IMG/VR virus record: IMGVR_UViG_3300034159_000059
Strand: one strand, 5' to 3'
Source: a virus
Length of the DNA: 64,000 bases
Both the position numbers and the translations under genes were made by a program. Positions 3,092 to 43,780 of this stretch are shown here, in pieces. Numbering within the stretch: the first letter of the stretch is position 1; every line of letters starts with the position of its first letter. The notes beneath the pieces were generated by a model, which had not been told where the DNA came from, did not search any database, and saw only the letters and a list, made by a program, of their open reading frames with translations.

Positions 3092-3921
3092 TGGCAGAGA
3101 AGAAGCCGAAGAAGGAGCAGCCCGTAGAAGCCAAGCTCCACTCGTTCACAGGAACGAAGATGGAGCAGTTGAAGCAGCTCTGGGAGCAGCACTGGTACGG
3201 ATGTCAGCGCTGTATCCTGCACACCTTTCGTCGAGGAGATGACGGCTCTCCTTTCCCAGACATCGTCTTTGGGGATGGGAATCCTGAAGCCAAGATTCTG
3301 ATTATCGGCGAGGCTCCTGGGGCCGAAGAGGACATCAGCGGGGTGCCTTTCGTTGGACCCGCCGGGAGGCTGCTGAACCAGATCCTCGCATCAGTGTCAG
3401 ACGACCCTGGTATCCAAGAACTCTACCGATGGTACAGCAGCATCCGCCATACCAAGGAGAATATCGACCACTTCCACGAGAAGGTTTTGGAGTGGCGCCG
3501 CCACGAGTTCTTCATCACCAATGCGGTGGCTTGTCGACCCCCAGACAACCGGACCCCTACCCATCCAGAAGTAAAAGCCTGCTGGGAGAGGCTTCTCAAC
3601 ATCATCGACATCATCGACCCCTGGTTCATCATCGCCAGCGGGAAGTCTGCCGTCGAAGTCTTAGTCCATCGGCAGATCGAGATCACGAGGAAGCACGGCG
3701 AGATCTTCGATGTCGAAATCCCTGGCCATGTGATGCCGTATCGCAAGCCTGTGATGGCTACGCTTCACCCTTCTTACCTACTGCGCCAGGCAGACTGGAA
3801 GAACAAGAAGGGCAGTTTCATGCAGACAGTTCACGATTATCTCCAGGCGATGCGCTACGTCGATGGGATGAAGTTCCAGCATCTCGGCACGCCGATCCCC
3901 AAACGGTTGGACTACCCCTAG
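3091..3921 (+). CDS. udg: uracil-DNA glycosylase, family 4 (Fe-S type)
   Basis: Motifs GCQRCIL, ILIIGEAPGAEED and GVPFVGPAGRLLNQIL, typical of family-4 UDG. Start moved to ATG 3091 (ATGA overlap with upstream stop). The listed ORF 2944 adds a non-protein-like N-terminal extension. Confidence 0.85.
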   Translation: MAEKKPKKEQPVEAKLHSFTGTKMEQLKQLWEQHWYGCQRCILHTFRRGDDGSPFPDIVFGDGNPEAKILIIGEAPGAEEDISGVPFVGPAGRLLNQILASVSDDPGIQELYRWYSSIRHTKENIDHFHEKVLEWRRHEFFITNAVACRPPDNRTPTHPEVKACWERLLNIIDIIDPWFIIASGKSAVEVLVHRQIEITRKHGEIFDVEIPGHVMPYRKPVMATLHPSYLLRQADWKNKKGSFMQTVHDYLQAMRYVDGMKFQHLGTPIPKRLDYP

Positions 3922-6856: not shown

Positions 6857-7945
6857 ATGCGAGAACAAGTCCTCTCGTTGCTCCAGCGATACTTGCCGGG
6901 ATCTATCCGGCCGGGCGCTGGCGGCAACGTTCTACTGAAGTGTCCCTTTCACAAAGAGGGACAAGAACGTCGCCCTTCGTTTAGCGTGAATGTAGAGCTA
7001 GGGCTCTTTCACTGCTTCACTTGTCACACCGCCGGAGACATCAGGTATCTCCTCCGACTCCTAGGTCTACCTCGAAGCAACATCGACGCAGAGCTGCATT
7101 CCATCCAAGCAGAGCTCGACTCCAACCGAGCAAAGCTGGAGTTCGAGAAGACTCACTTCTTCGTCAACGCTGATCCGTTCAAGGCGAAGTTCCCTCTTCC
7201 TGAAAGTCTTCTCGGCGTCTACGAGTGGTGCCCTACGCTGCTTGTGGAGCACGGCCTCTCGATGGAGCTTCTTCGCGACTACGAGATCGGCTTCGACCGA
7301 ATACAGAACCGCATCACCTACCCGCTGCGGGACATGTACGGCACGTTGGCGGGCATCATCGGAGGCAAGACGCTCCCACAACAAGAACCCAAGTACTTGG
7401 TCTACGAAGGAGGGCATCAAGAGCAGAAGACGAACAAGTGGGTATCGGGCGACTTCGGGCCTTGGTTTGATGAACAGTTTCCTGGCTACCGATGCGAAAA
7501 CCATGACTTCATCTGGAACTACAACCGTGTCTACCCAAGGGTCATGGAAGCTGTGTCAGGGCAAGATGATACGGTCATCTTGGTTGAAGGATACAAAGCC
7601 TGTCTCTGGACCATCCAGAGCGGTTTCCTGAACACGGTGGCACTGATGGGATCCTACATCTCCGAGACGCAGCAGCGAATGCTCCACCGTCTCGGCGGTA
7701 TGGTGTATCTCTTCTTCGACAACGACTACGCCGGTAGAGAAGCAACGAAGAGGATCGGCAAGCTCTTGTGGCGTCCGCTTCATGGACGTCTCAAGGTAGT
7801 GCAGTACCCGGAGGAAGATGTGAAGATGTCCATCTCCGGCGATGACAGAGGCGATTCACAACCAGACGACTATGAGGCGCAAGGTATTCACCAGATGGTG
7901 GCTAACAGCCTCGACTTCCACGTCTACATGAGCAAGCATAGGTGA
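6857..7945 (+). CDS. DnaG-type DNA primase (CHC2 zinc finger + TOPRIM)
   Basis: CPFHKEGQERRPSFSVN...HCFTCHTAGD zinc-binding motif. TOPRIM region ILVEGYKA...FFDNDYAGREA. Confidence 0.85.
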   Translation: MREQVLSLLQRYLPGSIRPGAGGNVLLKCPFHKEGQERRPSFSVNVELGLFHCFTCHTAGDIRYLLRLLGLPRSNIDAELHSIQAELDSNRAKLEFEKTHFFVNADPFKAKFPLPESLLGVYEWCPTLLVEHGLSMELLRDYEIGFDRIQNRITYPLRDMYGTLAGIIGGKTLPQQEPKYLVYEGGHQEQKTNKWVSGDFGPWFDEQFPGYRCENHDFIWNYNRVYPRVMEAVSGQDDTVILVEGYKACLWTIQSGFLNTVALMGSYISETQQRMLHRLGGMVYLFFDNDYAGREATKRIGKLLWRPLHGRLKVVQYPEEDVKMSISGDDRGDSQPDDYEAQGIHQMVANSLDFHVYMSKHR

Positions 7946-9444: not shown

Positions 9445-11436
9445 ATGCCAGTCTTCGACCTATCCCTGCCCCCTGCCTACTTCGTAGAGACGGAGCATGA
9501 GGCAAGGCAGTGGATGAACCACTTCCTTGTGAGCTCCAAGGCGAACAACGGTCTCGGCCTCGACTCTGAGACCAGCGGCATTACCAAGTTCAAAGACGTT
9601 GTCATCATCTGGTCTCTCTCAGACGGTGCCAACCGGATCTGCCTTCCAGCCAAGTTCATCCCACTCTACAGGGAGCCCATCCTAGAGAACCCGGAAATCA
9701 ACTTCGACCTCACCAACGCGAAGTTCGACGCCCACATGTTCGCCAACACGGGAGCGGACATCTCCAAGGCCGGAGAGTGGCGAGACACAGTGGTGCAGTC
9801 TTTTCTCTTCAACGAGAACAACCAAGGGCGTCACGGTCTCAAGGAGTGCATCCGAGATCACTTCAACCGGGAACCCCCCACCTTCGAACAGATCTTCGGC
9901 AAGATTCCGATCGTGAAGAAAGGGATGCCGAAGAAGACCTACGCCGACCTCATCAACGAAGCTCTCGCTGATCCTGTGAGACGCGCCGCCGCGACAGACT
10001 ACGCGGCCATGGACGCATACAACTCTACAACGCTGCGCGCCTACTTCGATCAACAGCTCGAAGAGATCAAGATGTACCCGGGGATGACGTTGAAGCAGTT
10101 CTTCTACGACGTCGAGGTCCCCTTCACCAAGGTTCTCTGGAAGATTGAGCGTCGAGGCTTCCAGGTTGATGCGGGCTATCTGTGGGCGCTGAAGGGGCCC
10201 ATGGAGAAGCGGATGGAGGAGATCGAGAAGGAGTTCGCCAAGGCAGCAGGGCAGCTTCTCAGTCTTCAGTCGACGCATGCCATGCGGTGGTTCTTCTACG
10301 ACTTCCTGAAGAAGGAGCCCTTCAAGTACACGAAGGGCGGGGTTTCTGGAAACATCCAGCCATCTACTGACGTAGAAGTCATGGACGAGTGGGCCGGCAA
10401 AGGTGATGAGTGGGCAAAGCTGCTTCTGGAGTATCGGGGCATCGCGAAAATCCACGGCACCTACGTCGAAGGCATCATGGAGCTGCTCGACTCCAAGTAC
10501 AGAGTCCACACCTCCCTGAACCAGACCGGGGCCCAGTCTGGACGCCTCAGCTCGTCAGACCCCAACCTCCAGAACATTCCCCGTCCTGGAGAAGATCAGT
10601 TCAGGATCCGTGACGCTTTCATCGCCGGAGCGGGCAAGAGGCTCATCGTAGCCGACTACGCCCAGCTTGAAATGCGTCTCATGGCGCACTTCAGCCAAGA
10701 CGAGAAGATGATCAAGGCCATCGTTGATGGCATCGATCTTCACTGCTTCACTGTCTCCGAGATGCACGGCATTCCCTACGACGAAGTCATCGCCGCTGTG
10801 AAGGCGGAGAAGCTTCATAAGAAGGGGAAGCTAGGGCGCGACCTCACGGAGCGGGAAGAAGAGCTGCTCCTCATGCGGCAGGCTGCCAAGGCCACTGGCT
10901 TCGGCATCATCTACGGTATCGGCGGTCCTCGCCTTGCTATGGGCCTCACCAAGATCAGCAAGGGCAAGATCTACTCCGAGGCCGAAGGCTGGCAGCTCAT
11001 CGAGAAGTGGTTCGGCGTCTTCCCCCGAGTCCGAGACTTCATCGAGGGCATGAAGAAGCAGATCCGCACGAAGGGCTACGTCCAGACCATCACTGGCCGG
11101 TTCCGCCGTTCCGGTGACGTCGCCAACATGACCAAGAAGGACGCATCCCAGATCGAGCGCACCTTGGTGAACGCCATCGTTCAAGGTTCGGCTGCGGACG
11201 TGGCCAAAGCTTCCATGCTGCGAGCTGAGCACGACCCAATCATGAGGGAGTACGGGGCCACGATGGAGCTCCAGGTCCACGACGAACTCGTCTTCGAAGT
11301 ACCAGACATTCCCGAGGTCGTGGAAGGCTGCAAGAAGAGGCTCAAGGAGATCATGGAGAACCCGTTCGGCCAGCCGCTGCTCGTCCCCCTACCGGCCGAA
11401 GTTGGAGACGGTTACTCATGGGCGACTGCCAAGTAA
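9445..11436 (+). CDS. polA: DNA polymerase I family A with 3'-5' exonuclease domain
   Basis: Exo I motif GLDSETSG. Motif A DYAQLEMRLMAH. O-helix RRxxKxxNFGxxYG-like (RQAAKATGFGIIYG). Motif C QVHDELVFE. Confidence 0.9.
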   Translation: MPVFDLSLPPAYFVETEHEARQWMNHFLVSSKANNGLGLDSETSGITKFKDVVIIWSLSDGANRICLPAKFIPLYREPILENPEINFDLTNAKFDAHMFANTGADISKAGEWRDTVVQSFLFNENNQGRHGLKECIRDHFNREPPTFEQIFGKIPIVKKGMPKKTYADLINEALADPVRRAAATDYAAMDAYNSTTLRAYFDQQLEEIKMYPGMTLKQFFYDVEVPFTKVLWKIERRGFQVDAGYLWALKGPMEKRMEEIEKEFAKAAGQLLSLQSTHAMRWFFYDFLKKEPFKYTKGGVSGNIQPSTDVEVMDEWAGKGDEWAKLLLEYRGIAKIHGTYVEGIMELLDSKYRVHTSLNQTGAQSGRLSSSDPNLQNIPRPGEDQFRIRDAFIAGAGKRLIVADYAQLEMRLMAHFSQDEKMIKAIVDGIDLHCFTVSEMHGIPYDEVIAAVKAEKLHKKGKLGRDLTEREEELLLMRQAAKATGFGIIYGIGGPRLAMGLTKISKGKIYSEAEGWQLIEKWFGVFPRVRDFIEGMKKQIRTKGYVQTITGRFRRSGDVANMTKKDASQIERTLVNAIVQGSAADVAKASMLRAEHDPIMREYGATMELQVHDELVFEVPDIPEVVEGCKKRLKEIMENPFGQPLLVPLPAEVGDGYSWATAK

Positions 11437-20311: not shown

Positions 20312-20874
20312 CGGAGTACGACCAGAACGGGAAACGGATCTACCTTCGAGTCTGGTACCCCCAGCTCCCGCCGACGACCAACCATCTCTACTACCTGGGG
20401 ACGCGCCTCACAGACGAGGCTCGGATCTACCGAGGCGCGTTTCGTCAGTACATGCAGCAGAACTACGGTCACCAGATCTCTGAGATGGAAGAGCCGAACG
20501 ACAAGGCGTTGGTGACCGTCAAGCGCAAGAACAAGCCCACCATCGAGGAGTTGAAGGACGTCAAGACGAGGAACCCGAACCTCCTCTACGGCATCAACCT
20601 GACGTTCTTCATGGATGTCTTCACGACCTGGGGAGATCCGAAGTACCCCAAGTCACAGAGAGCCAAGTTTCGGTTCTCGAAGACGGACCTCTCGAACCGA
20701 GTCAAGTTCGTTGAGGATTGCTTCAAGTACGCCCTCGACCTCGACGACTCCCTCACCTTTTGGAGCTCTCAGAGGAAAATCCACAATCCCCAACAGCAAG
20801 GAGTGGACATCGAGTACTTCGTAGTACCCCCCGAAAGCGTTGGGGTTGAGAGCGTTGGAGGCCCACCGATTTGA
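20308..20874 (+). CDS. rusA: RusA-like Holliday junction resolvase (with insertion)
   Basis: LPPTTNHLYY (cf. RusA PPSNNRYY). KTDLSNRVKF and ALDLDDSL match the RusA catalytic Asp clusters (RRDLDN / WLDDAQV). Confidence 0.55.
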   Translation: MTEYDQNGKRIYLRVWYPQLPPTTNHLYYLGTRLTDEARIYRGAFRQYMQQNYGHQISEMEEPNDKALVTVKRKNKPTIEELKDVKTRNPNLLYGINLTFFMDVFTTWGDPKYPKSQRAKFRFSKTDLSNRVKFVEDCFKYALDLDDSLTFWSSQRKIHNPQQQGVDIEYFVVPPESVGVESVGGPPI

Positions 20875-21317
20875 AAGACCTCAATCCGGACACGCTGCGT
20901 CTGATGTCCGACGAGGAATTGCGAGAACGGCAGAGGCGTACCGGCGAGTTGGGGAATGGGAAAGTAGTCATCTGCCAGCCAGACCTGACGGACCCTATGG
21001 TCATGCAGCAGGTCCCTAGAGCGACGTGTGTCGCGACTCCCTACTACGCTTGTCTTAGCTGTAAACACCATCACTTCGAGTTCATCTTCCGAACTCAAAC
21101 GGAAGAGAATTGGGTGTTGTGCCCTAGATGGAACAGGGAAACCTCGACCGGGCCTCCGGACTACTACGTCCCAGTCTGGTTGTCGGAGTGTTATGGTAAG
21201 ACACATCCGTTCTGCTCGCAGTGTCCCAGCCGTGAGGAACTGGATGACCTCCTCACAGACAAGCAGCGAGAAGGTTGGTTGGAGCGGTATCGAAAACTGA
21301 CGAAGGAGGAGTCTTGA
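20871..21317 (+). CDS. hypothetical Cys/His-rich protein
   Basis: 148 aa. CLSCKHHHFEF ... CPRWN ... CSQCP. Confidence 0.5.
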   Translation: MKDLNPDTLRLMSDEELRERQRRTGELGNGKVVICQPDLTDPMVMQQVPRATCVATPYYACLSCKHHHFEFIFRTQTEENWVLCPRWNRETSTGPPDYYVPVWLSECYGKTHPFCSQCPSREELDDLLTDKQREGWLERYRKLTKEES

Positions 21318-21490
21318 AGACCTTCATCATCGGAGTGAAGGAGGTTCATATCCAACCAGTCAGAGTCGAAGCCGACTCAAGAGAAGAGGCGATCAAGAAG
21401 GTCGCAGAGGGAGAAGGAGAGACTCTCGAAGAACTTCTAGAGTACGACTACACCTTGGAGCCGGACGTCTGGACAGCCCAGGAGAGGTGA
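21313..21490 (+). CDS. small hypothetical protein
   Basis: TTG start with GAAGGAGGAG RBS. Overlaps the upstream stop. Confidence 0.35.
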
Positions 21491-21777
21491 TGAAAAAGCG
21501 CTTGCGCCTCAAGTGCTCCAAACGAGTCTTCTGCACTCGACTCGAAGAGCGTCTCAACCCGGAAGCGAACCACGGCAAGGGCCTCGCCCTGTTCTACGTA
21601 ACGCATCACAAAAGCGGGAAGGGTCGACGTCTAGGCGTCATGCACAAGACCTCCGAGAAGGACGGCGGCCTCCTTCTCACCTTCTGCCCGTGGTGCGGAA
21701 CGAATCTACTAGAGCTCTTCAAGCTCGTCCGCACCAGCGGGAATATGCCTGAAGTCGATCCTGGAGCGGAGAGATGA
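21487..21777 (+). CDS. hypothetical protein (CPWCG motif)
   Basis: 96-aa ORF. Confidence 0.45.
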   Translation: MMKKRLRLKCSKRVFCTRLEERLNPEANHGKGLALFYVTHHKSGKGRRLGVMHKTSEKDGGLLLTFCPWCGTNLLELFKLVRTSGNMPEVDPGAER

Positions 21778-21995
21778 GCCAGGTTCGCTGCGAGGTGGAG
21801 GAGGTCGAGCTAGAAAACGACTGCGGGAAAATGGTTGAAGGGGTCAGAGTCACTTGCGGACGTTGCGGTCACACGACTGAATCGTTCGGCACCGGCCCTG
21901 CCAGCACTCGTCGCTGTCTCGCCCTCCTCCGAGAAGAGTGTCCTGAAGGTGAGCGGAACTTCTACATCACCGAGGGAGAGAACAGAGATGCTTGA
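21774..21995 (+). CDS. small Zn-ribbon-like hypothetical protein
   Basis: CGRCGHT motif. Confidence 0.4.
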   Translation: MSQVRCEVEEVELENDCGKMVEGVRVTCGRCGHTTESFGTGPASTRRCLALLREECPEGERNFYITEGENRDA

Positions 21996-22025: not shown

Positions 22026-22355
22026 ATGACTGAAGGCGACGAGAAGCTCTCACTCTGCAACGAATCGGAGCTCTTGTGGCTGGCGAGGAGGCAGGGTCTT
22101 CCTGTCTTGCGTTACGGCATCCCAAGGGAAGAGCTTCTCGCCATCGTCTCAGGAGAAGCTCGTGTGGAGGAGAGACATCTCTCTCCCACCAACCAGACCA
22201 GAGCGAGGCTGGAAGCATTCGTCCAGGCGAACTTCGATCGGGTCCAGGGACAACTCCCAGGATGTACAGGCTTGTGCCGAACCTTCCACTGCACAGAGGG
22301 GAAGCACATGCACTGCTTCATCCCCAACGAGTCGATGCTTCTCTGCCATGAATGA
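22026..22355 (+). CDS. hypothetical protein
   Basis: 109-aa ORF. Stop overlaps the next start (ATGAATGA). Confidence 0.45.
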   Translation: MTEGDEKLSLCNESELLWLARRQGLPVLRYGIPREELLAIVSGEARVEERHLSPTNQTRARLEAFVQANFDRVQGQLPGCTGLCRTFHCTEGKHMHCFIPNESMLLCHE

Positions 22356-23637
22356 GTCCTACAACCAGGAATGTCTTACCTGCGCGAAGATCGGATACTG
22401 TGCGCAGCTCACCATTCCGAAGCTCCTTGGCGGGCACGTCTGCCCGTCATTCGTCGCAGCAGCAGTTCCCGTGATACAGGCGCGCGTCGCGATGGTAGAG
22501 AAGTACGACCCTGTTACCGCCGCCCGAGCGCTCTTGAATCGAACCGACAAGCACAGCCAGGAGGAGTCCATTGAAATGAGCCTCGACGCCCCGACCCCAG
22601 GGACGACCTACTCGGACAGGAAGAAGCAGTTTGAGATCATGCCTTTCATGGATGTCCGTCTGATCGGGAACAAGAAGTACCGATACGAAGACGGCACACC
22701 GATCTTGGACTGGGACGCGACGCTGCACACCGACTCGCGTCAGGTATCCATCGAGAAGGTTCTCCAGTTCGAACTCGACGAAGGTTTCATCGTCCCAGAT
22801 GGAGCAGAGCAGTCCACCCAGCAGCCCCAGCAAGGAGTTCAGCAGATGGCCAATCCCTACATGCCCCCGAACGGAATGCCTCAGCCCAACATGATGCAGC
22901 CTCCTGGCGCTCCGCCGCCCATGCCGATGCCAGGTGGTGCTCCTCCCGGCATGATGATGCCGACGATGGCTCCGCCGATGGCACCCCCGCCTCCGCAGGC
23001 CGCCCCTTACGGGATGGCGCCGATGGCCCCTCCAGGGGCACCACCTCCGGTTGCCAGCCCGGCGCAAGCTGCGGCCGTGGCTCAGGGTGTTTCTCCCGAC
23101 GCTGCGCCGCAGACAACCCCGACGGGGCGGAAGAAGAGAGGCTCTGCTGCCGCTGCGGCTGCCGCACCTCCGCCGGCAGCCCCTCCTGCACCTCCAGGAC
23201 AGCCTCAGCAGTACGCGCAGCCGGCTCCAAACCAGTACGCGCCCCAGGCAGTTCCTGCGACGCCCTGGGGAGGCATGCAGCCGCCAGGTCTGCCGCCGGC
23301 CATCCCTGCGCCGATGAGCATGTCGGCCCCCATGGCGCCGGTCGCACCGCCCCAGCAAGTCGCCCCCCCTCCGGGTGCCGACACGGGGATGATCCTCCAG
23401 CGACTGGACGCACTCGGGCAGGCAGTGGGCGCCGTCGGGAATGCGGCTCAGGAGGGTACGAAGCAGTCCCTCGCTGCGGTCAATGAGCTGAAGAGCATCC
23501 TCCTCATCAACACAGCGACGCTCTGGTACCTCTGCCTCTCCAACAGCAGCATCATGAGCGACGTGGCGAAGAACGGAGGCGACCTGCGCACGTTCGATGG
23601 CTTCGTCGCCTACATGCAGCGCTACGTCCCTCGGTAA
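22348..23637 (+). CDS. Pro/Ala/Met-rich low-complexity protein with N-terminal Cys motif and globular C-terminal domain
   Basis: Start ATG 22348 (MNESYNQECLTCAKIGYCAQ). ~200-aa P/A/M/Q-rich region. The listed ORF 22162 carries an Arg-rich extension rejected here. Confidence 0.55.
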   Translation: MNESYNQECLTCAKIGYCAQLTIPKLLGGHVCPSFVAAAVPVIQARVAMVEKYDPVTAARALLNRTDKHSQEESIEMSLDAPTPGTTYSDRKKQFEIMPFMDVRLIGNKKYRYEDGTPILDWDATLHTDSRQVSIEKVLQFELDEGFIVPDGAEQSTQQPQQGVQQMANPYMPPNGMPQPNMMQPPGAPPPMPMPGGAPPGMMMPTMAPPMAPPPPQAAPYGMAPMAPPGAPPPVASPAQAAAVAQGVSPDAAPQTTPTGRKKRGSAAAAAAAPPPAAPPAPPGQPQQYAQPAPNQYAPQAVPATPWGGMQPPGLPPAIPAPMSMSAPMAPVAPPQQVAPPPGADTGMILQRLDALGQAVGAVGNAAQEGTKQSLAAVNELKSILLINTATLWYLCLSNSSIMSDVAKNGGDLRTFDGFVAYMQRYVPR

Positions 23638-24424: not shown

Positions 24425-24426
24425 TA

Positions 24427-24456
24427 GAAGGCGACGAAGTCGTCGCCTTCTTTTTT
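24427..24456 (+). terminator. rho-independent terminator at the convergence point (gaaggcgacga...tcgtcgccttc + TTTTTT)
   Basis: GC-rich hairpin followed by T6. The minus-strand gene stop lies in the T-run. Confidence 0.65.
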
Positions 24457-24811: not shown

Positions 24812-25122
24812 CAGGAACCCTTTCTACTCACCCCGTTCTTCTCATCACCCTTCTTCTTGAGACCACACACGGCGAAGTCGGTGCAGGCCTTTCCGTAGAG
24901 CCTTCGAATCTTCTCATCCTTGCAGAGTGTACAGAATAGGTTGGGCTCGTCGGTGCTGGTGATCACGATCGGTCTCATCGACTTGACGTCGCGCACGAGA
25001 ACCTCATCCGGGCTGATCGACTCAAGGGTAGCGTCTTGCAGGAGCCCCTTCTTCTCGAACTCCGAGAGAAGCTCCCGAGTGTCTCCCCAGAAGACCGCTA
25101 GCGTTGGCTTGCGCTCTGTCAT
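24811..25122 (-). CDS. hypothetical protein
   Basis: 103-aa ORF, start/stop coupled to its neighbours. Confidence 0.45.
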   Translation of the reverse strand: MTERKPTLAVFWGDTRELLSEFEKKGLLQDATLESISPDEVLVRDVKSMRPIVITSTDEPNLFCTLCKDEKIRRLYGKACTDFAVCGLKKKGDEKNGVSRKGS

Positions 25123-26609
25123 TTCGCCCGATCTTCCTGCCGCAAGAGCTCCCGGAACTGGGTGTTGAGACGATCCTTGTCTCTAGAGAGACGGGTCAGG
25201 TACTCGTCAACCCCAAGTCCTTGGGACCGTAGACCCATTCTCTCCAACATCCCTGTGCGAGGTCTAGTGGCTAGGAAGCGCTGAACGAGGACCTTCCGCT
25301 CCTCTGGAGGTAGATCAGCGTGGCTTCCGTACCTCACGCCCCGTCCAATGACCTGGCGGAGCTTCTCATCATTCCAGTGCGGCTCCAAGACCTGCATGAG
25401 CCTCGTTCCCTTCAGATCGAGGCCTTCTCCTCCTGCACTGGACAGCAAGAGGGCGCGGATCTTGTTCTCGTTGTACGCCTTCACCAGCTCGTTGCGTTCC
25501 TTCTTCTTCATCTGGCCGCTGAACTCCCCGTAAGGAATCCCGGCCTCGGTGAGCTTCTTCTTGTACGGATCGAGTCCCGCTTGCAGGTAGTTCGAGTAGA
25601 CGACAGCCTTTGCGCGCGGGTTGCTGTCGAGGTTCTTCTTCAGCTCCTCGAAGGCCTTCTGGATCTTTGGGGCTTCCGGCTCTCCAGCCGTCTGAAAGGG
25701 AGCCGTAGCGTTCGAGACCTGTCGAACTCCTCCTAGGAAGGCGTTCAGGTCGCCAGCCTCTTGTTTCGTTGGAGGCAGACCCTTCTTCACCTTGTACCGA
25801 ACCCAGAACGGAGCCTTCTTCATCAAGGTGTCGTAGAACTCAAGCTGGCGCTGGGACATCGGCACCTTCATCTCCTGAGTCTCCACCTCCGGGAAGTTCT
25901 CCTTCGAGCCTTCGTAGTAGTCGACCCACTTGTTGAGAGTCGACTGGAGCTCCTTCCTTCTAGCTGGGTTGACGATAGGAACCGAGCCAGAACTGACTCC
26001 CCGAAGCTTGGCGATGAGTCCTGGGTTCTTGCGCAGGTGGTAGATGTACCGATCTTCGAAGTCCTGCCGATCTTCTGGGAGGATCTTCCCACCAGCCGCG
26101 ATGTTGACGAGCGGGGCGATGTCGGAGGGCCGGTTGTAGAAAGGAGTGCCCGTGAGGAGAAGACGCTTCTGAGAGGTGTTCTTTCGAAGCGTCTCGAAAG
26201 TCTTGGATCCCGTATCTCTGGCTCGATGTGCCTCGTCCACCACCATGAGGGGAGCCGAGGGACCTTCTCCCTTCCTCGCGACGTTCTGCATCGAGACGAT
26301 CTTCGAAGCCTGTCGCTTCCCTTGGGTGTGTTTCTTGATCTCCTTCTTGTAGTTGGCTTGAAGAGCGGCGGGCACCACCACCGTCGAGGGAACTCCCAAC
26401 GCTTCTTGGGCTGCGATGGCTGTGAGGGTCTTTCCGGAGCCGAGGCCATGCGCGACTACCAACCCAGGCTGATCCGCCTTCTGGATCCTCTTCACTACGC
26501 GCTCTTGATGCGGCTGAAGAGGCGTGACAAGTCTCGCCTCTTTCAGCAGCCTTGCAGCTCGTAGAAGTGCCTGGGGGTCGTAGGTCACGGCTTTGCCGTT
26601 CCCTTCCAC
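25119..26609 (-). CDS. SNF2-family helicase/ATPase
   Basis: Walker A GLGSGKTLTA. DEAH box VVDEAHRARD. Motif III LLLTGTPFYNRPSD. C-terminal helicase motifs (LLSSAGGEGLDL, VIGRGVRYGS). Confidence 0.8.
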   Translation of the reverse strand: MEGNGKAVTYDPQALLRAARLLKEARLVTPLQPHQERVVKRIQKADQPGLVVAHGLGSGKTLTAIAAQEALGVPSTVVVPAALQANYKKEIKKHTQGKRQASKIVSMQNVARKGEGPSAPLMVVDEAHRARDTGSKTFETLRKNTSQKRLLLTGTPFYNRPSDIAPLVNIAAGGKILPEDRQDFEDRYIYHLRKNPGLIAKLRGVSSGSVPIVNPARRKELQSTLNKWVDYYEGSKENFPEVETQEMKVPMSQRQLEFYDTLMKKAPFWVRYKVKKGLPPTKQEAGDLNAFLGGVRQVSNATAPFQTAGEPEAPKIQKAFEELKKNLDSNPRAKAVVYSNYLQAGLDPYKKKLTEAGIPYGEFSGQMKKKERNELVKAYNENKIRALLLSSAGGEGLDLKGTRLMQVLEPHWNDEKLRQVIGRGVRYGSHADLPPEERKVLVQRFLATRPRTGMLERMGLRSQGLGVDEYLTRLSRDKDRLNTQFRELLRQEDRAK

Positions 26610-27888: not shown

Positions 27889-28284
27889 TCAGGATGTGCT
27901 GACTGATTGGAGCGCAACAACAGGGCTGCGGGAAGCATTTTTCTCGACGAGGTTCTTCACCACGTTGAAGAGAAGAAGCCATCTCTGCTGGTCAGAGAGG
28001 GAGAGAAAAGCGTCTTCCGTCATTCCTTGGATCTGCGCACACATGTCTTCTACACGCTGTCGATCGACAAGCTTTGCCTTCCTCGCAGCGATCCCTGCTT
28101 GATCGGCGACGACAACTTTTCCGTCTTCGACCTTGTAGAACTGAGGACCGACTTCAAAGAAGTCGGGAGGCACCTCCGTAGTTACGACTAGTTCTCCATC
28201 ATTCAAAAAACTGTGATCCGCTGTGTCGTCAGAAGACGCAGAACGAATCACTCCTGACTCGTTGAGGTATGTGAGTTTTGCCAT
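27889..28284 (-). CDS. hypothetical protein
   Basis: 131-aa ORF. Confidence 0.45.
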   Translation of the reverse strand: MAKLTYLNESGVIRSASSDDTADHSFLNDGELVVTTEVPPDFFEVGPQFYKVEDGKVVVADQAGIAARKAKLVDRQRVEDMCAQIQGMTEDAFLSLSDQQRWLLLFNVVKNLVEKNASRSPVVALQSVSTS

Positions 28285-36381: not shown

Positions 36382-38787
36382 TCAGCTAACGCCTCCGCCG
36401 GAGCCTCCACCACTTTCTTCGTCTGCGGTGATGATGGCTAGAGCCCGGCCTCCGAAAGCGTCCGTGAAATAGGTATCCCCATGAGGCTCCTGCAAAAGCT
36501 CAAAGTCGAACCCGGAGGATACACCCCAGCGAAGGTATTCCCACTCGGAGATGCAGTAGTTGTGTGAGTTGAAGTTCCCAAAGGCGATGCCCGGTTCTGC
36601 ATCAGTGTCGTCAGGATGAGGAGTGAACTGGTCCCATGGGATCGAGATGAGAGGCGTGTCCATGATGTAGTTCGAACCGTAGACTTCGATTCGGTGGTAT
36701 GGACGGTACACCAAGCGGTAGCTCTTCATCTGCATCCAGTCCGCATCGGTCGAGTACAATCTTCCGATAGCCGTCTGCTGGATGATCTCATCCTCCAGCC
36801 CCCCATTCCCTGGGATGATGCCGATCTTTCGACCATATACCCCACAGTCGAAAAAGCCGATGTGAATGCGGAAAGGGTTGTTCAACGGACTCTCTTGCCT
36901 TCCGAAGAAGACCGTAGCCCCGATCCCTGTCCACTGGTTTGGGGCATTCGAGGCCCCGCTCGCGTCAGTGTAGGAGGACACTCGGGCGCGGAAGTCGAGC
37001 TGGAATCCTCGATGAAGAGTGAAATCCCCCGGGCGGTAGAAGGAGATGCCTCGCCCATCCCCCGGCCCAAAGCTCGTCTTTTCGATGGCGAGTTTGCTGT
37101 CCTGCATCACCGCCGTACCTCCGCCCTCTTCTAGAAGCTCGAAGGAGACGGGGGCTGCTGAAGGGAGGGAGTCTTCCTTCTCCCAGGCCAAGTAGTGATT
37201 CAAATAGTTGATGGAGGCGACGTTGACATCTCCTAGCGTAGGAGCGTTGCTGAGGTGGCCGATATCGATCCGTCCTTGTTGCTGGACGTCGGTAGGGAAC
37301 TCGGAGGCCAAAGGGACAGTCAAGAACGGGGTATCCATGTCCTCGACGAAGAGGCGCAGCTCTCCTCTCCTCCTGTCCACCGTGAGACGGACTAGCTTCA
37401 ACGTTCGGTAATCCACCCACGACATAACATCGTCTGTGCTAGCGGTGTAATAGCCGTGGGCCACATCCCCCGCCAGCCCTGTGTTCTTGACGATGCCGAG
37501 AGAGCGTTGGAGCTCAGTGTCGAGAGCGATGAGCTGAAACACTTGAGCCCCGTCGGATACCCGGATCCCGAGCCCGGTGTCGGCGTTGATGAGGGCATTC
37601 AGCTTCCCTGACATCCACGCTTCGACAGAGAACCCATCCTGCCTAGTCGTCAGCCGTGGCTCTAGGCGAGAGATCCTAGCCTCTCCATGGAGAGCTTCTT
37701 TGTGGATGGTCGCGTAGAGGGGAACGGTCTTCCTCCCAGGCTGGTACCAAAAGCTGATCTCGGGAAGAACTGTACCAGAGACCTGCCACCTCCCGAGACC
37801 TTGGTCCACTGGAAGGCGTTGATCGGTAGCAAAGAAGGAGTAGGGAAGGTCTGGGCGACGTCGGTAGGAGTGAGAGAGCTGCCCCTCTCCATTCATGATC
37901 CCAAGAGGCGCGTAGGGGTAGATCGCCCAGTCCGTGATCTCTACCAGATCCTCGGCGCCTCCCATGTTCCCAAAGTAGAGGGTCGCGCTCAGGCTCGGAC
38001 CGGAACGCCTCTGAGAGAAGGAACTATCTGCGGGTCGAAATTCCCCCAACATGGAGAGAGGGAGCGCAGGATCGATAGGCGTCGGCGCCGAGTCGGAGGG
38101 GTTCTGAACCCAGATCTGCGCAGTCTGGGTACCCGCGTCTATGTAGAAGAAGACGGTGTAGATGTCCCCGTCCGAGAGAGTAGTCCACCCAACTCCCGGG
38201 ATCTCTGTCTCGGCTCCCCGAGCTTGGTTGTATGCGAGGAGGGGGCCTCCTAGAACAAGACTGCCGCCGGCACCATCATCCCTCAAGAAAACGAAGAGGC
38301 CTGTGTTGCGAACACCGTACTCCAGCCCCAGGTAGATGGGGGCGATGTTGTCGAGGTCGCAGACGTAGCGAGAGTCTTTCGACCAAGACGCCCGGACTCG
38401 AAAAGAGACAGAGGCCAGCACAGACCCGTAGGTATCTATGGGGAGCTGGATTTCGTAGACACCTGTATCGACTCCGGAAGAGGTCCCTGGACCAATGTCT
38501 AGAACCGCGCCGTCCGCAAAACGAGGCAGGACGGATGTCGAAGGCTCTCGGCGCTCTGGCGTTCGAACCATCACTGCGACTCTTTTTAGGAGGTCCGTAT
38601 CCTCTTCAGGAAGAACCGCGACTCCTCCAGCAGTTTTCTGTACGATGTTGGAGAAAGCGAGGCGGGCTTGGAGAGACGGGAGAAGCACGTAGCCGGTGTC
38701 AGACTTCAGGCTGAAAAGGAACGGGGTTCCCGGGAGAAGGGGGCTGTTGACGTCTCCGGGAGTGGTGTTTACGAGTCGAAGAGCCAA
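36382..38787 (-). CDS. virion structural protein (801 aa)
   Basis: Long ORF, beta-rich. Confidence 0.55.
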   Translation of the reverse strand: MALRLVNTTPGDVNSPLLPGTPFLFSLKSDTGYVLLPSLQARLAFSNIVQKTAGGVAVLPEEDTDLLKRVAVMVRTPERREPSTSVLPRFADGAVLDIGPGTSSGVDTGVYEIQLPIDTYGSVLASVSFRVRASWSKDSRYVCDLDNIAPIYLGLEYGVRNTGLFVFLRDDGAGGSLVLGGPLLAYNQARGAETEIPGVGWTTLSDGDIYTVFFYIDAGTQTAQIWVQNPSDSAPTPIDPALPLSMLGEFRPADSSFSQRRSGPSLSATLYFGNMGGAEDLVEITDWAIYPYAPLGIMNGEGQLSHSYRRRPDLPYSFFATDQRLPVDQGLGRWQVSGTVLPEISFWYQPGRKTVPLYATIHKEALHGEARISRLEPRLTTRQDGFSVEAWMSGKLNALINADTGLGIRVSDGAQVFQLIALDTELQRSLGIVKNTGLAGDVAHGYYTASTDDVMSWVDYRTLKLVRLTVDRRRGELRLFVEDMDTPFLTVPLASEFPTDVQQQGRIDIGHLSNAPTLGDVNVASINYLNHYLAWEKEDSLPSAAPVSFELLEEGGGTAVMQDSKLAIEKTSFGPGDGRGISFYRPGDFTLHRGFQLDFRARVSSYTDASGASNAPNQWTGIGATVFFGRQESPLNNPFRIHIGFFDCGVYGRKIGIIPGNGGLEDEIIQQTAIGRLYSTDADWMQMKSYRLVYRPYHRIEVYGSNYIMDTPLISIPWDQFTPHPDDTDAEPGIAFGNFNSHNYCISEWEYLRWGVSSGFDFELLQEPHGDTYFTDAFGGRALAIITADEESGGGSGGGVS

Positions 38788-38838
38788 GGCGAGTCCTCTG
38801 ACACCGAGTTGCCGCGATTATACGGAAGGGGGCCCACC

Positions 38839-39147
38839 ATGCACAGCCTCAAGGCGATGGACCAGCAGAGAATCCGAGAGATTCTCGACGCGCGAGACGA
38901 GAAGGGGGAAAAGCTCTACCCGGATGTCTTGACGCCTCTGATGGAGAAGGAAGAAGAGCTCTTCCGGACTGCCTCCTGTCCCAAGTGCGGCGCCATGGCT
39001 CCGACGCCGACCTTGAACACCCATCGCCCTTTCGTACCCAACTCGCCTTTGCCGAACAAGATCCTGCGCTGTGTGACCTGCGGTACGGAGTTCGACCCCA
39101 GGACCGGCCTCATCACCCTGGCGTCGATCATCGACGGGTCAGGTTGA
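38839..39147 (+). CDS. small Zn-ribbon protein encoded on the opposite strand inside the virion operon
   Basis: GGAAGGGGG RBS 8 nt upstream of the ATG. Very strong GC3 bias. CPKCG...CVTCG. Its 3' end overlaps the stop of the 1550-aa minus gene by 20 nt. Confidence 0.5.
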   Translation: MHSLKAMDQQRIREILDARDEKGEKLYPDVLTPLMEKEEELFRTASCPKCGAMAPTPTLNTHRPFVPNSPLPNKILRCVTCGTEFDPRTGLITLASIIDGSG

Positions 39148-42100
39148 TACGCTCCCCTGTTGGGATGTCTGTCAGGCCCGAGACGTCCTGTCCCGGAGAG
39201 AAGAAGGTGACTCGGGGAGAGCCGTTGTAGGGGACCTTGGTGTCTGTCGCAGCGGCCCCGCCGAGCTGATTCTCCGAGAACTCGACCCACATCCGCCTGT
39301 TCCAGTCATAGACCGTAGAGGAGATCTTGGTCGGGGTATCAGGGTTCCCGCTGTGGTTGTCGATGATCTTCTCCATCTCAGAGACGTCCACCGCAGTCTC
39401 GACAGGAAGCTGGTCGATGTAGCTCTGAAGATCCGTAGCGATAGCCCCTGGGCTGTCTCCTCCGGTGTAGGAAGCGTCATAGGAGACGTAGGCCGGCAAG
39501 AAGTGCCGGGACAAGAGACCTGCGGAGAGGACTCGATCGTCGAGAGAGTCGATGAAGTCTTGTACCAGCTCGACCAAAGAGGATCGCTCGTAGGTGATCT
39601 GGACAGGGGATCCCACGACCCTTACCAAACTGTCTGTGGAGTCCGGACTTCCGACCGGCAAGATGTTGATGGGCAGATCGAGGAACCCGTCCTCCAGCAT
39701 CGAGTAGGTGAAGTTCGGATCCTTCACCGCGTGTCGGTAGCCGATCGAGTTGTACGTCCCTTCGTCTGTAGTGAGGTAGCTATCCTGCGCCAAGTTCGAC
39801 TGCTCGGAAGGAGCCAGTGAGACGATCTCCGTGTCAAAGTAGTAGAGAAAGCCCTCACGGTTCTGGCTCATCTCGGTCGAGGTGATGCGTCGAACGTTGG
39901 GGCGGTAGATTCGGTACGGCTGCCTCACTCCTTGCCGAAGCGTGTCGGTTGGCGCGATCGCTCCTCCCGAGACCGAAGCGTCATGCAAGATGCTCTGGAA
40001 CGTGAAGTCCGTAGCGACAGCTTCGTAGATGCGAATCGGAACTGCTCCCACAAGCTCCGTACCTGTCGGAGCTGTGGTGGGAGGGGGAACGTCTCTTGAG
40101 ATGTTGGAAGGAGCGGTGCTGGGCGCCGTAGTGGTGATCCACCGGACGGTTCCTTCTTCCGTCGAAGGATTATTGAACTGAGTCTGGCTCGGCGTCTGCA
40201 CCTTGATGGCTGTACCGAAACCACTGATGTCTTTGTTGTACACCTGGAGGATGGGGAAAGACCCCATCCAACGGTAGTCCATTCCGAAGAGGGTGATGTA
40301 GCTTCCGACGTCGGAGTCGTCCCAAGGACGGTCTCCCGAGCTGGCCACCACTACGTTGGCCCCCGTTGCGTAGATCCCTCCTGCATCATAGAAGTAGTCG
40401 CCCCCCGCCCCCTGCTTCGAGATGAGAGAGGTTGATCCTTGCAGCACTCGATCGACGAGCACGTTCCTGCCGTCGATGTATCGAGTGATGTGGTAACCCC
40501 CTTGGTCCGAGCCCTCTTCGATGAAGAGCAGGTTTCCGACCATGGATGCCGTGAAGACTGTGTCGGCCGAGTCAGGAGCAGTGAGCTGCTGAGAACCCGC
40601 ACTCGTCTGAACCACTGCCTGCTGAAGCCTTGTGGTGTAGAGAAATACCTCCTCACGCACGGAGAGGACATCCCCAGGACGTACTCCGGCAGAGAAGATG
40701 GAGAGGCGCGACGAGTCGGCAAAGACCGGGTTGGCTTGGTCGGATGGATCCAAGTCTCTCGGATACGATGTCGGATCTGCATCCGAGGTAAGCCGAGGAG
40801 GGACCACCTCGTACTGAGTGTAGCGAAGTGGATCTGGACGGAACTTCGCGAAATCGCCTGTCGAAGTCTTGTACGACCTGGTCGTCACCAGGTCGGCGTC
40901 TCCCGTCTTCTCTTCGAATAGAGTCGGCTCTCTGAAGTAGGTTCGAAGGACGCCGCGGGCAGGCAGGCCCCAGTCGTAGTAGCACGCGGACATTGCGTCT
41001 ACGACGCCTTGGAGTTCCTCTCCAGAGGGAGGATCTGAGATCCCCCCATCGACGAGAGCGTTGTAGACCTTCTCTCCCAGGGAGGCGTACCAGTTCTGGA
41101 AGAAGGTCGGGAACGGGATAGGGAGCGAGACGTCTCCAGAAGTGAGACCGATCGACTCCCCGTGCTCCATCAAGAACTCGATGAGGCGCTTTGTTGGATC
41201 GACAGGGAAAGTGCCGTAGATCTGGAGGAAGTACACGTAACACGTCTTGGGCGCGGAATCGCCTAGTAGCGACGGATGCGGGACGTTGCCTCCTACGGAG
41301 TACTTGAACTTGTGGACCGCCTTGATGAGGTAGCTTCCCTTGTTCGGCCCATTCTTGATCGTGAAACACTCTCCAGGATTGGGATCGATGGGTGGCGTGT
41401 TCACAGCGTCATCGAAACTCTCCGTGGTAGCCATGAAGAAGCTGGTCTTCCCTTGAGAGTCTGAGCGGAAGTCGAGCTCTGCCTGGCTGCCATCAGGAAA
41501 GATGACCGGGAGGTAGATCCCGTCCGGAGAATCGAAACCCATCGAGTAGCGCCGATCGCCTGAGTCTGCGGCCGTGCTTGAAAAGCTGTCGAGCAAGGTA
41601 GAGAGGTCAGGAAGGACGTACCCGGAGGCAAGCTGGCTGGATCCCAGAACCTTCGCGGAGGTGAGGGGTCCTGTCGGAATCACTGCTGCCGGATCGGCTG
41701 GGGGGATGGTGAGGCCAGTAGACTGCTTCGCTGAATCCAGGAGCAGAAGTTCCCGAACGCGGACCAGCGGCCGAATGACGGACTCCAGGGGTGTGAAGAC
41801 TTCGAAGGGAATGTTGAAACTCGTCGCAGTGAGCTTCCGATCGAGGTAGATGCCCTGGCCGCCGAGCTTGGAATCAAACGACTGGATGGTGTAGTCCCCT
41901 ACATCCAGACCTTCGAGAACCCTTACAGTGTCACCGACACGAGCTCCGAATTGGAGAAGATCGTTCTGCGCAGTGGTGATGAGGTTCGATCCGATGGTAG
42001 TGCGCAGATCTCGTTGCTCTGCATCACCGAACGGGAACCTGACGATACGGGCTTCGAAAGGGTTGATGCGGATCTGCTTGAGGACGCGGTACCGCAAGCC

Positions 42101-43780
42101 ATTCACCGGACTCGCTGCCGTGAGCTTCTGGTTCAGATAGAGGTTCCCAGAATCGTCCATGTCCCCGATGACGTAGAGACCGGCATCAGATCCTTCTTCG
42201 ATCGATAGAACGTCTCCGAGATCTACTCCTGCGGCCTCGAACGCGAAGTCAGGGGATAGGTCATGAACGATGTTGGAGCCGCTTACGGTTAGCAGGCCCA
42301 GGCGCTCTAGAAAGAAGTGCGGGTTCTGGGTAGTAGATCCCAGCTTCCCTAGATCGTAGACCCCATCGACGACGGCTTTGGTGGTGTCTTGTGTGGTCGG
42401 TCGGACATAGATGTCGCTTCGGCCGAAGATGTGAACGGACTGGTTATCGACGGTGAGGCTCACATCCCCGATATCTGGGATGGATGTGACGTGAATTGTC
42501 CCCTTCTTCGTGAAGCCTCCTTCGAAGGACAAGGGGAGAGTGTCCAAGAAGGACTGAACGTTGGTGACTCCGAATGTCAAAGAGAGGACAGCGTCCGGAT
42601 CCTCCCAACGAACGAAGTACCCTGTCTGGAACTCTCCGGTAGACGCACGGGGGCCGAAGAGAAGCTCTGCCACCTTCAGGCGAACGAAGCGGCGAGCTTG
42701 GGGGACTCCATCAAACTGGCCCGTCTCTCCGGCTCCGAACATGCGTGACACACTGCTCCCGCCCCCTCCAACAGAAACCTTGGGGAGGTAGAAGTAGAGG
42801 GTATCCCCCGTCTGAGGGATCGCGCTCTCTTCTCCCTCAATAGTACGAGCTCGGACATAGGCCACCTGCTTGTAGAGCTCGACTACTCCAGTGATCCAGG
42901 CATGTCCTGGGGACGCGGCAACAAGGATGTCCCGCTGCATCTCCGCATCCTTGGCTCCAACCACTTGAACTGAGCGAAGTGCTCCCTTGAAGACCGTATT
43001 GAGCCGAGCTCTCGCTCCGCGACGAGTCACCAGGGAGCGCTCGGTGAGGGACTCTTCCGCAGCCGATGCGAAGGAGATCGTGTCTTGCCTGTCGGTTCCT
43101 CCTGTGAAGGCCCGAAGGTTGGAGACCTTGATGACGTTCGGAACCCCCTCGATGCCTGAGATCTCGTCGATGCCGATGTTGTAGGAGGAGCCTGCGTTCT
43201 CCGCACGGAGGGGAACGTCCATGTAAAAGAACGAGCCGTCCCGATTGAACGCCATCGACTCCGCAGAGCTGACCACTGGATTCGTCGGGAAGAAATTCAG
43301 GTTCGAACCACTGTAAACGCGATTCGCGACGTCGATCCGAACATCGGTAGGGTTGGCGAAATAGAGCCGGACGGCACCAACGGCGTAGCCACCCTGGTCC
43401 CGAGAGTCGAAGAAGTTTGCGATGAGAGCATCCGCGTCCTCATCCGACAAGACAGAAGGATCGACGAGAGACTGGTTCTTCTTGATCGTCTGCACCTCTC
43501 GCTTGAAAGGCTCCAGAATGATGCGGAGAGGGTTGATGAAGATGTCCCTCAACGCCCCTGGATCGTTGGCGTAGATGTCAGGGAACTCTTGAGCGAAACG
43601 ATCGGTGACGAACGTATCGATGTCCGTCTCGAAAGGATCCGTGCCCAGGTAGGAGAGGACAGGATGGATGAACTTCGTCTGCGCTGCGGACCCGGGAGAT
43701 ATGTCCGTGGTCGGGTCAAGCGCGACGAGACGGTCTTCTAGAAACTGCTGGAGGTCGGCGCTGGCCATGAGGTCACCCAA
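39128..43780 (-). CDS. giant virion structural protein (1550 aa), possibly baseplate-associated
   Basis: Long biased ORF. Confidence 0.55.
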   Translation of the reverse strand: MGDLMASADLQQFLEDRLVALDPTTDISPGSAAQTKFIHPVLSYLGTDPFETDIDTFVTDRFAQEFPDIYANDPGALRDIFINPLRIILEPFKREVQTIKKNQSLVDPSVLSDEDADALIANFFDSRDQGGYAVGAVRLYFANPTDVRIDVANRVYSGSNLNFFPTNPVVSSAESMAFNRDGSFFYMDVPLRAENAGSSYNIGIDEISGIEGVPNVIKVSNLRAFTGGTDRQDTISFASAAEESLTERSLVTRRGARARLNTVFKGALRSVQVVGAKDAEMQRDILVAASPGHAWITGVVELYKQVAYVRARTIEGEESAIPQTGDTLYFYLPKVSVGGGGSSVSRMFGAGETGQFDGVPQARRFVRLKVAELLFGPRASTGEFQTGYFVRWEDPDAVLSLTFGVTNVQSFLDTLPLSFEGGFTKKGTIHVTSIPDIGDVSLTVDNQSVHIFGRSDIYVRPTTQDTTKAVVDGVYDLGKLGSTTQNPHFFLERLGLLTVSGSNIVHDLSPDFAFEAAGVDLGDVLSIEEGSDAGLYVIGDMDDSGNLYLNQKLTAASPVNGLRYRVLKQIRINPFEARIVRFPFGDAEQRDLRTTIGSNLITTAQNDLLQFGARVGDTVRVLEGLDVGDYTIQSFDSKLGGQGIYLDRKLTATSFNIPFEVFTPLESVIRPLVRVRELLLLDSAKQSTGLTIPPADPAAVIPTGPLTSAKVLGSSQLASGYVLPDLSTLLDSFSSTAADSGDRRYSMGFDSPDGIYLPVIFPDGSQAELDFRSDSQGKTSFFMATTESFDDAVNTPPIDPNPGECFTIKNGPNKGSYLIKAVHKFKYSVGGNVPHPSLLGDSAPKTCYVYFLQIYGTFPVDPTKRLIEFLMEHGESIGLTSGDVSLPIPFPTFFQNWYASLGEKVYNALVDGGISDPPSGEELQGVVDAMSACYYDWGLPARGVLRTYFREPTLFEEKTGDADLVTTRSYKTSTGDFAKFRPDPLRYTQYEVVPPRLTSDADPTSYPRDLDPSDQANPVFADSSRLSIFSAGVRPGDVLSVREEVFLYTTRLQQAVVQTSAGSQQLTAPDSADTVFTASMVGNLLFIEEGSDQGGYHITRYIDGRNVLVDRVLQGSTSLISKQGAGGDYFYDAGGIYATGANVVVASSGDRPWDDSDVGSYITLFGMDYRWMGSFPILQVYNKDISGFGTAIKVQTPSQTQFNNPSTEEGTVRWITTTAPSTAPSNISRDVPPPTTAPTGTELVGAVPIRIYEAVATDFTFQSILHDASVSGGAIAPTDTLRQGVRQPYRIYRPNVRRITSTEMSQNREGFLYYFDTEIVSLAPSEQSNLAQDSYLTTDEGTYNSIGYRHAVKDPNFTYSMLEDGFLDLPINILPVGSPDSTDSLVRVVGSPVQITYERSSLVELVQDFIDSLDDRVLSAGLLSRHFLPAYVSYDASYTGGDSPGAIATDLQSYIDQLPVETAVDVSEMEKIIDNHSGNPDTPTKISSTVYDWNRRMWVEFSENQLGGAAATDTKVPYNGSPRVTFFSPGQDVSGLTDIPTGERINLTRR

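Follow-up and report, generated by a model that had tools for sequence, protein, structure and literature searches.

The window (the whole 64-kb stretch of viral DNA analyzed here) carries, between two giant minus-strand genes, a small open reading frame (ORF) on the opposite strand that fills the 340-nt intergenic gap from the gene for an 801-amino-acid (aa) protein to the gene for a 1550-aa protein. The locus raises the question of whether this ORF is a gene at all and, if so, whether it belongs to the core of the phage or was picked up as an accessory, and what a small backward gene could be doing there. A sequence-only reading had described the ORF as coding, with a ribosome-binding site, two CxxC pairs, and a 20-nt overlap with the stop of the 1550-aa gene, and had likened it to morons or regulators. 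The sizes it gave for the gap and for the overlap agree with ours (Table 1), and the ribosome-binding site GGAAGGGGG is present, at a spacing of 6 nt from the ATG.

The translation of 102 aa reads MHSLKAMDQQ...CPKCG...CVTCG...IIDGSG, with the two cysteine pairs at residues 47 to 51 and 78 to 82. GC content at codon positions 1/2/3 is 0.54/0.47/0.80, compared with a GC3 of 0.68 to 0.70 in the flanking giant genes. When the six frames were compared across related loci, the +1 frame alone was free of stops (12/12 loci), and each minus-strand frame contained stops in at least 9 of the 12. Pairwise dN/dS values for the gene ranged from 0.15 to 0.46, with dS saturated. We give next to no credence to the reading in which the ORF is not a gene, its open frame being a by-product of GC3-rich antisense sequence or a minus-strand frame being the expressed one. 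The antisense frame that has its third positions in common with the ORF does have a GC3 of 0.80 and a single stop in the window, as such a reading would have it, but the minus frames are all closed somewhere among the loci, four cysteines and the loop residues are invariant over about 200 clusters of homologues, dN/dS is well below 1, and the protein has a confidently modeled fold (AlphaFold). Expression of a minus-strand frame, which had been raised as the counter-case to the sequence-only reading, is refuted because the +1 frame is the only one open in all 12 loci and because of the dN/dS values. Together with the GC3 bias and the homologues described below, these comparisons show that the 102-aa ORF is coding, as had been claimed, and is a genuine, strongly constrained gene. 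One public gene call begins farther upstream, at a TTG at 38668 (159 aa). We rejected this start and take the ATG at 38839 and the 102-aa form as correct because the homologues begin at the aligned position, with ATG or GTG, behind a conserved ribosome-binding site.

Table 1. Features at and around the small zinc-ribbon gene, in window coordinates.
Feature	Position	Strand	Remarks
801-aa all-beta protein, lectin/concanavalin-like sandwich domains	36382..38787	-	structure model
19-nt motif GCGATTATACGGAAGGGGG	38814..38832		ribosome-binding site plus symmetric -10-like core
GATTAT	38816..38821	+	same core as TATAAT
TATAAT	38817..38822	-	29 nt ahead of the TTG with which the 801-aa gene starts
Ribosome-binding site GGAAGGGGG	38824..38832	+	serves the 102-aa ORF
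Stand-alone zinc-ribbon gene, 102 aa	38839..39147	+	two N-terminal helices, three-stranded ribbon, CxxC-x27-CxxC
First zinc knuckle, C47-P-K-C50	38977..38988	+	all four residues invariant in 27 sequences
Inter-knuckle loop, R63-P-F...S69-x-L-P-N73	39025..39057	+	conserved residues R63, P64, F65, S69, L71, P72
Second zinc knuckle, C78-V-T-C81, then TEFDP turn	39070..39081	+	C78, C81, T83, E84, P87 invariant
Convergent overlap between the 3' ends of the small gene and the 1550-aa gene (final codons and stop codon of the latter)	39128..39147	both	20 nt
Baseplate protein, 1550 aa, gp6/J-like N-terminal wedge domain	39128..43780	-	PHROG 6, E = 3.9e-12

Modeling of the protein with AlphaFold from a 27-sequence alignment gave a pLDDT of 84 and placed helices at residues 9 to 16 and 31 to 44, followed by a three-stranded ribbon bearing both knuckles; the C-terminal residues are variable and have low pLDDT. 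In the model, the two CxxC knuckles sit at beta-hairpin turns of a small three-stranded sheet, which is the arrangement of a generic zinc ribbon, and the four cysteines are predicted to form a Zn(II) site. The pairs noted from the letters alone are in this way borne out.

A search of 5.8 billion proteins returned 27 hits, namely, an identical copy (P0001), 25 relatives of ~100 aa at 57 to 78% identity, and one distant relative (~40%), and a profile search of 1.84 billion representatives yielded ~197 clusters at 50% identity (E ≤ 1e-3). In the 150 of these 197 clusters that were listed, the family consists of stand-alone metagenomic proteins of 70 to 141 aa with no fused domain detected. The spacing CxxC-x26/27-CxxC is found in 149 of 188 members, and the median pI is 5.7 (103/188 below pI 6 and 19/188 above pI 8). 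Within the close family (27 sequences), the invariant residues are C47, P48, K49, C50, R63, P64, F65, S69, L71, P72, C78, C81, T83, E84, and P87. A deep alignment of 40 sequences retained the four cysteines and F65 as invariant, with P48, P64, L71, P72, and P87 at 90% or more, and held no basic residue among its invariants. The loop RPF...SPLPN is thus marked out by residue conservation as a candidate partner-binding surface.

No significant structural or curated family match was obtained for the protein in Pfam, NCBIfam, PHROGs, PADLOC, the PDB, or Foldseek. Pfam and NCBIfam gave sub-threshold generic zinc-ribbon matches only (NCBIfam RpoP, 17.3 bits against a cut-off of 63), PHROGs gave zero matches, the best PADLOC match was at chance level (E = 0.038, to Cas12f), the best hit of the PDB profile search was a C2H2 finger (E = 0.011), and Foldseek against viral models gave nothing at E ≤ 0.001. 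The best of the sub-threshold ribbon matches were to transcription proteins, namely, RPA12 (E = 0.021), RpoP, Elf1, NrdR, and TFS, and three relatives are named RpoP/RPC12 or DUF1610 by JGI (COG names); Pfam matches to DUF1610 and to TFIIS_C were not found. When 40 family members were scanned against Pfam (E up to 0.05), Lar (3/40), YacG (1/40), and Com (1/40) appeared as isolated matches, all below the gathering threshold, and neither zf-dskA_traR nor Ogr_Delta was among the 25 most frequent of the 43 Pfam families. Nor did Ogr_Delta (PF04606) match the window protein when E values up to 1 were allowed. A precomputed match to PF27618.1 is attached to four close relatives (P0016, P0020, P0024, and P0180), and a literature search found no paper mentioning PF27618 and nothing on a zinc-ribbon gene lying on the opposite strand among baseplate genes. 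Among deposited phage genomes, a DNA search returned nothing resembling the locus, and tblastn queries with four members of the family found no homologue in 50,697 deposited phage records, nor did a scan of GTDB genomes. One candidate relative (L001, positions 3390 to 3893, IMG/VR, 34% identity) was rejected; it is an HNH-like 167-aa ORF on a high-GC contig with only the string CVTCGTEF in common. The homology and structure searches suggested in the sequence-only reading accordingly gave a divided answer, in that a family of ~197 clusters came to light and a known family or structural match did not.

We then looked at the surroundings of the gene. The identical 102-aa protein is also encoded on a 209,442-bp JGI contig, and relatives are encoded by contigs 198 kb and 138 kb long; the lineage is one of uncultivated large soil myovirus-like phages, with contigs of 138 to 209 kb. 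On the + strand, the window encodes a helicase, DnaB, a primase, a family A DNA polymerase (PolA), a RecA-like ATPase, and a class II ribonucleotide reductase, and on the - strand, from 24 to 61 kb, lies a block of giant genes without Pfam matches that includes the tail genes. A strong hairpin at 24426-24451 (11-bp stem with 7 G-C pairs, followed by a T-run) is likely a terminator dividing the two strand blocks because it falls exactly at the convergent junction of the + replication block and the - block. An SNF2-family helicase gene (25119-26609, -) sits at the edge of the structural block, so the strands split early and late functions imperfectly. A second reverse gene in this block (27907-28191, +), suggested by GC3, was rejected, as an overlapping minus-strand ORF of 131 aa reads as a normal protein.

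The supposition that both neighbors of the small gene are virion genes is supported. Besides the PHROG match of the 1550-aa protein (Table 1), its N terminus aligns with the baseplate wedge protein gp188 of Bacillus phage G (28% identity, residues 66 to 284), and a 215-aa protein encoded upstream of it matches a baseplate PHROG. The 801-aa protein was modeled from 15 homologues (pLDDT 89.4, pTM 0.84), and the best structural matches of the model were concanavalin/lectin-like sandwich domains of ~160 to 230 residues; a role at the baseplate periphery or in receptor binding is probable. The protein also resembles the carbohydrate-binding modules of phage baseplate proteins. Its gene starts with TTG, as it does in most relatives, behind the ribosome-binding site AGAGGA; one public gene call shortens the product to 768 aa.

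Is the small gene a passenger at this site? Morons are patchy, fast-evolving genes, and P2 Z/fun are reverse-oriented morons in a tail region. The sequence-only reading had placed an antisense small gene inside a late operon and compared it with morons or regulators. We examined 12 contexts (the window, L002, L006, L007, L009, L011, and L013 to L018), reaching down to ~30% identity. In all 12 the small gene is opposite in strand to its giant neighbors; on its 5' side lies the start of a giant minus-strand gene, 26 to 82 nt away, and on its 3' side lies the end of the J-like gene, with an intervening gene in three contexts. Where the J-like gene comes next, the two overlap by 14 to 35 nt in seven relatives (L002, L006, L007, L009, L011, L013, and L015) and abut without overlap in L017. 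The three distant contexts with an intervening gene each have one extra variable + strand gene between the small gene and the J-like gene: in L014 a 186-aa protein with one hydrophobic segment (10348-10908), in L016 an 84-aa glycine-zipper protein (10659-10913), and in L018 a 101-aa protein with a C-terminal hydrophobic segment (7138-7443). On the evidence of these arrangements, the reverse-strand site is an insertion hotspot for accessory genes in distant relatives, and the extra genes look moron-like. The J-like gene is homologous in every tested locus with a complete gene (31 to 61% identity), and the left-hand gene, on the side of the 801-aa protein, is recognizably homologous in the close clade and L013 only.

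For the six closer genomes (L002, L006, L007, L009, L011, and L013), we compared conservation over the same genome pairs. The small protein has 51 to 74% identity, and the 11 flanking tail proteins have 30 to 69%. It ranks first in conservation in two of the six genomes and trails the best protein by no more than 6 points in the other four, the proteins of 229 aa and 147 aa being the only ones to equal or surpass it. Patchy presence was not seen, the gene occupying the same site in 12/12 contexts at ~30 to 78% identity, and neither was faster evolution than in the flanking core genes. Because the position is fixed in all 12 contexts and the conservation is among the highest in the module, the zinc-ribbon gene is shown by comparison of these genomes to be a core gene of the phage lineage and not a picked-up accessory. 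Like the P2 Z/fun-type morons, it is a small reverse gene by tail/fiber genes, with putative expression signals of its own; unlike morons, it is universal in its lineage and among its most conserved proteins. Of the earlier description, then, the antisense placement inside the tail/baseplate block holds and the moron framing is not supported, and no significant PADLOC match speaks for the latter. The protein may still be a regulator, anti-sigma-like or binding some other protein. Neither the 3' overlap nor the antisense strand folded better, as RNA, than shuffled sequence, no convincing terminator was found flanking the small gene, and Rfam and tRNA scans of the whole 64-kb window were empty.

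The 51-nt spacer upstream of the small gene holds a noncoding block, GCGATTATACGGAAGGGGG, whose right half is the ribosome-binding site and whose left half reads TATAAT on the minus strand. Six distinct phages carry this block almost unchanged, although their synonymous sites are saturated. A 15-nt core of the motif occurs in exactly one copy in each of 11 loci, always upstream of the small gene, and an 18-mer of it was found in 2 of 2.9 million viral contigs, both at the zinc-ribbon locus. A regulon search found no second copy of the motif in the window, where this TATAAT is likewise unique on both strands. The plus strand of the same core reads GATTAT, its -11A and -7T being paired reciprocally with those of the minus strand, and a -18T is present on the + strand. 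Such reciprocal pairing within one -10 core is what characterizes symmetric bidirectional -10 promoters, which according to PMC10268837 (summarizing Warman et al. 2021) have divergent starts 18 bp apart; by analogy, start sites are predicted here at ~38810 (-) and ~38828 (+), also 18 bp apart. The locus resembles those promoters in having a single TATAAT-like core in which -11A/-7T of both strands are reciprocally paired, and it is unlike them in that the GCGATTATACGGAAGGGGG motif is without a -35 element or TGn extension and is limited to one clade.

On neither strand did we find a -35 element, and no sigma-70 promoter was called by the promoter tool. A TTGACG/TTGACA about 60 nt upstream was considered as a -35 element and rejected, as it is accounted for by Leu-Val-Asn codons conserved within the 801-aa gene, and the window itself has not retained it. 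Pairs of sigma-70 -35/-10 elements occur at or below chance over the first 60 kb of the window (0 vs 3.9 expected from 20 to 40 kb), which makes scanning for promoter consensus sequences uninformative here, and GATTATAC-like 8-mers are depleted (4 found vs 10.5 expected). To judge from these counts, canonical host promoters are probably something the phage avoids or does without. Distant relatives (L013, L015, and others) have spacers of 26 to 37 nt without the TATAAT motif, which is, in the loci aligned, specific to the window's clade. The sequence-only reading had pointed to 38788-38838 as the place to look for a promoter; a classical sigma-70 promoter was not found there, and a conserved -10-like element was, with its best match facing the other strand. 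We regard the motif itself as a firm observation and its function as a promoter as putative.

What the protein does can be argued from its residues, its strand, and this motif. We tentatively prefer the reading in which it regulates the tail module, or serves it as an adaptor, by binding protein and is transcribed separately. It would bind another protein, not DNA, through the invariant RPF...SPLPN loop and the TEFDP turn; a protein-binding rather than a nucleic-acid-binding role is suggested because the family is acidic and its conserved non-Cys residues are Phe, Pro, and Leu, not Arg or Lys. Its gene would form a separate transcription unit, to which the opposite strand, the conserved ribosome-binding site, and the 19-nt motif with its reciprocal core point, and its schedule could differ from that of the surrounding tail genes because the small gene shares its strand with the replication and nucleotide-metabolism genes. 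The protein would then time expression of the tail module, for example, by binding RNA polymerase or a transcription factor, a possibility consistent with the sub-threshold matches to transcription-protein ribbons and with the precedent of jumbo-phage ribbons (PMC7824862). In the window's clade, the -10-like element is fused with the ribosome-binding site of the small gene and looks toward the 801-aa lectin-domain gene as well. RNA polymerase sitting on it in one orientation would exclude the opposite one, and transcription continuing past the end of the 1550-aa gene would traverse the small gene in antisense. Competition between orientations and antisense read-through would leave zinc-ribbon expression inversely coupled to that of the tail genes.

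Several points count against this preferred reading. Timing and promoter use are predictions from sequence, the likeness to transcription-factor ribbons is below significance throughout, there is no -35 element, the TATAAT motif is limited to one clade, and the strand rule is imperfect, with the SNF2 helicase on the - strand. Moreover, the shared -10 element, if bidirectional, could have the small gene co-expressed late with the lectin-domain gene, and the baseplate linkage and structural-gene-like conservation fit a role in assembly about equally well. A stronger form of the preferred reading, which we consider improbable, is a timing switch in which one -10 element serves the zinc-ribbon and lectin/fiber genes, the zinc-ribbon protein feeds back on the choice of orientation or on the polymerase, and read-through from the J-like gene silences the small gene. 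If true, this would place a compact switch, common to the whole lineage, within the baseplate operon of a jumbo-phage clade.

A baseplate/fiber assembly factor or minor structural component is nearly as likely as a regulator or adaptor, which still leaves it somewhat doubtful. Here the ribbon would bind the C-terminal part of the 1550-aa protein or the lectin protein, either aiding baseplate assembly as a chaperone or clamp or remaining part of the virion, and would be made late from the shared bidirectional promoter. The adjacency to the J-like baseplate gene, invariable down to ~30% identity, agrees with this, as do conservation equal to that of the module's best-conserved structural proteins and an acidic protein whose conserved surface residues are hydrophobic or proline and not basic; the -10-like element in common with the 801-aa gene would provide co-expression. 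The opposite orientation in a late block, however, would bring head-on transcription just when a structural protein is needed, no PHROG or tail-family match was found, and synteny in phages can come from ancestry alone. We consider it unlikely that the gene encodes a host-takeover, anti-defense, or superinfection-exclusion protein, expressed independently of the late operon and inhibiting a host enzyme or defense. Its reverse orientation with its own ribosome-binding site would suit such a protein, small acidic proteins are typical inhibitors, the same reverse-strand site holds variable, accessory-looking small genes in L014, L016, and L018, and a few members have sub-threshold Lar and YacG-type ribbon matches. 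Yet the gene is never absent and is among the slowest-evolving of the module, the opposite of the usual counter-defense pattern; every Lar and YacG score is under the curated cut-offs; and neither PADLOC, where Cas12f was the top hit, nor the deposited phage records or GTDB genomes lend it support.

Quite unlikely, finally, is a regulator that resembles P2 Ogr or Mu Com and binds nucleic acid, which would act on late promoters or an mRNA leader and activate the tail genes. That P2-type phages encode the zinc-finger late activator Ogr beside tail gene D (PMC3091744) gives this reading its model, two relatives are named "RNA-binding Zn-ribbon (DUF1610)" by JGI, and there are weak matches to Zn_ribbon_Com in one member and to Phage_zn_bind_8 in another. 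Set against these are the failure of Ogr_Delta to match, the different Cys spacing, the acidic pI, with neither Arg nor Lys conserved across the deep family, and a conserved DNA motif that occurs once per genome segment, so that no regulon is visible. Ogr is basic, and the Cys spacing of Ogr/Delta is CX2C-X22-CX4C, whereas the present family is acidic, with CX2C-X26/27-CX2C in the majority of members; nor is a repeated target motif to be seen. The two are alike in being proteins of ~70 to 100 aa encoded beside tail genes, Zn-binding and transcribed on its own in the case of Ogr and predicted to be so in the present one, Ogr lying next to tail gene D in the P2-type gene order Int-Ogr-D (PMC3091744). 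From the TFIIS_C/Rpb9/RPA12/TFS ribbons, the protein is set apart by the lack of a significant profile match and by its loop, which reads RPFxPxSPLPN in place of an acidic hairpin motif.

For the stand-alone zinc ribbons of jumbo phages, a role as transcription factors or DNA-binding proteins has been proposed, and these ribbons include a TFIIE-like ZnR and a ZnR expansion to ~35 copies in Bacillus phage G (PMC7824862). The window protein resembles them as a small stand-alone C4 ribbon from a large phage with no enzymatic domain; it differs in having no sequence relationship to them detectable by tblastn in the 50,697 records and in being single-copy, acidic, and fixed in reverse inside a baseplate block. 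They are the closest functional comparison, and the position of the gene recalls P2 Ogr; by the tests run, it is a member of neither group.

The gene is a well-documented conserved hypothetical that leaves current views unchanged. To our knowledge, small stand-alone zinc ribbons are common in large phages, with almost none having an assigned role. The unusual property of this one is its lineage-wide conservation in reverse orientation inside a baseplate operon, which is well supported; the symmetric -10-like motif is a second, suggestive property. A gene that is single-copy, deeply conserved, always backwards at one junction of the baseplate block, and joined in one clade to a conserved promoter-like element offers an unusually clean handle. 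If it is a regulator, it would show how tail genes are timed in an uncultivated jumbo-phage lineage without recognizable sigma-70 promoters; if it is a baseplate factor, it would be a new component of contractile-tail assembly.

Elsewhere in the window, the + strand carries an ORF of 491 aa (22162-23637) with a long Pro/Ala/Gln/Met-rich low-complexity center and no Pfam match. The early block on the same strand also contains three ORFs with cysteine pairs, at 20871-21317 (148 aa, many Cys), 21487-21777 (96 aa, CPWCG), and 21774-21995 (73 aa, DCGK...TCGRCG), and by these motifs the phage may encode several small zinc-binding proteins.
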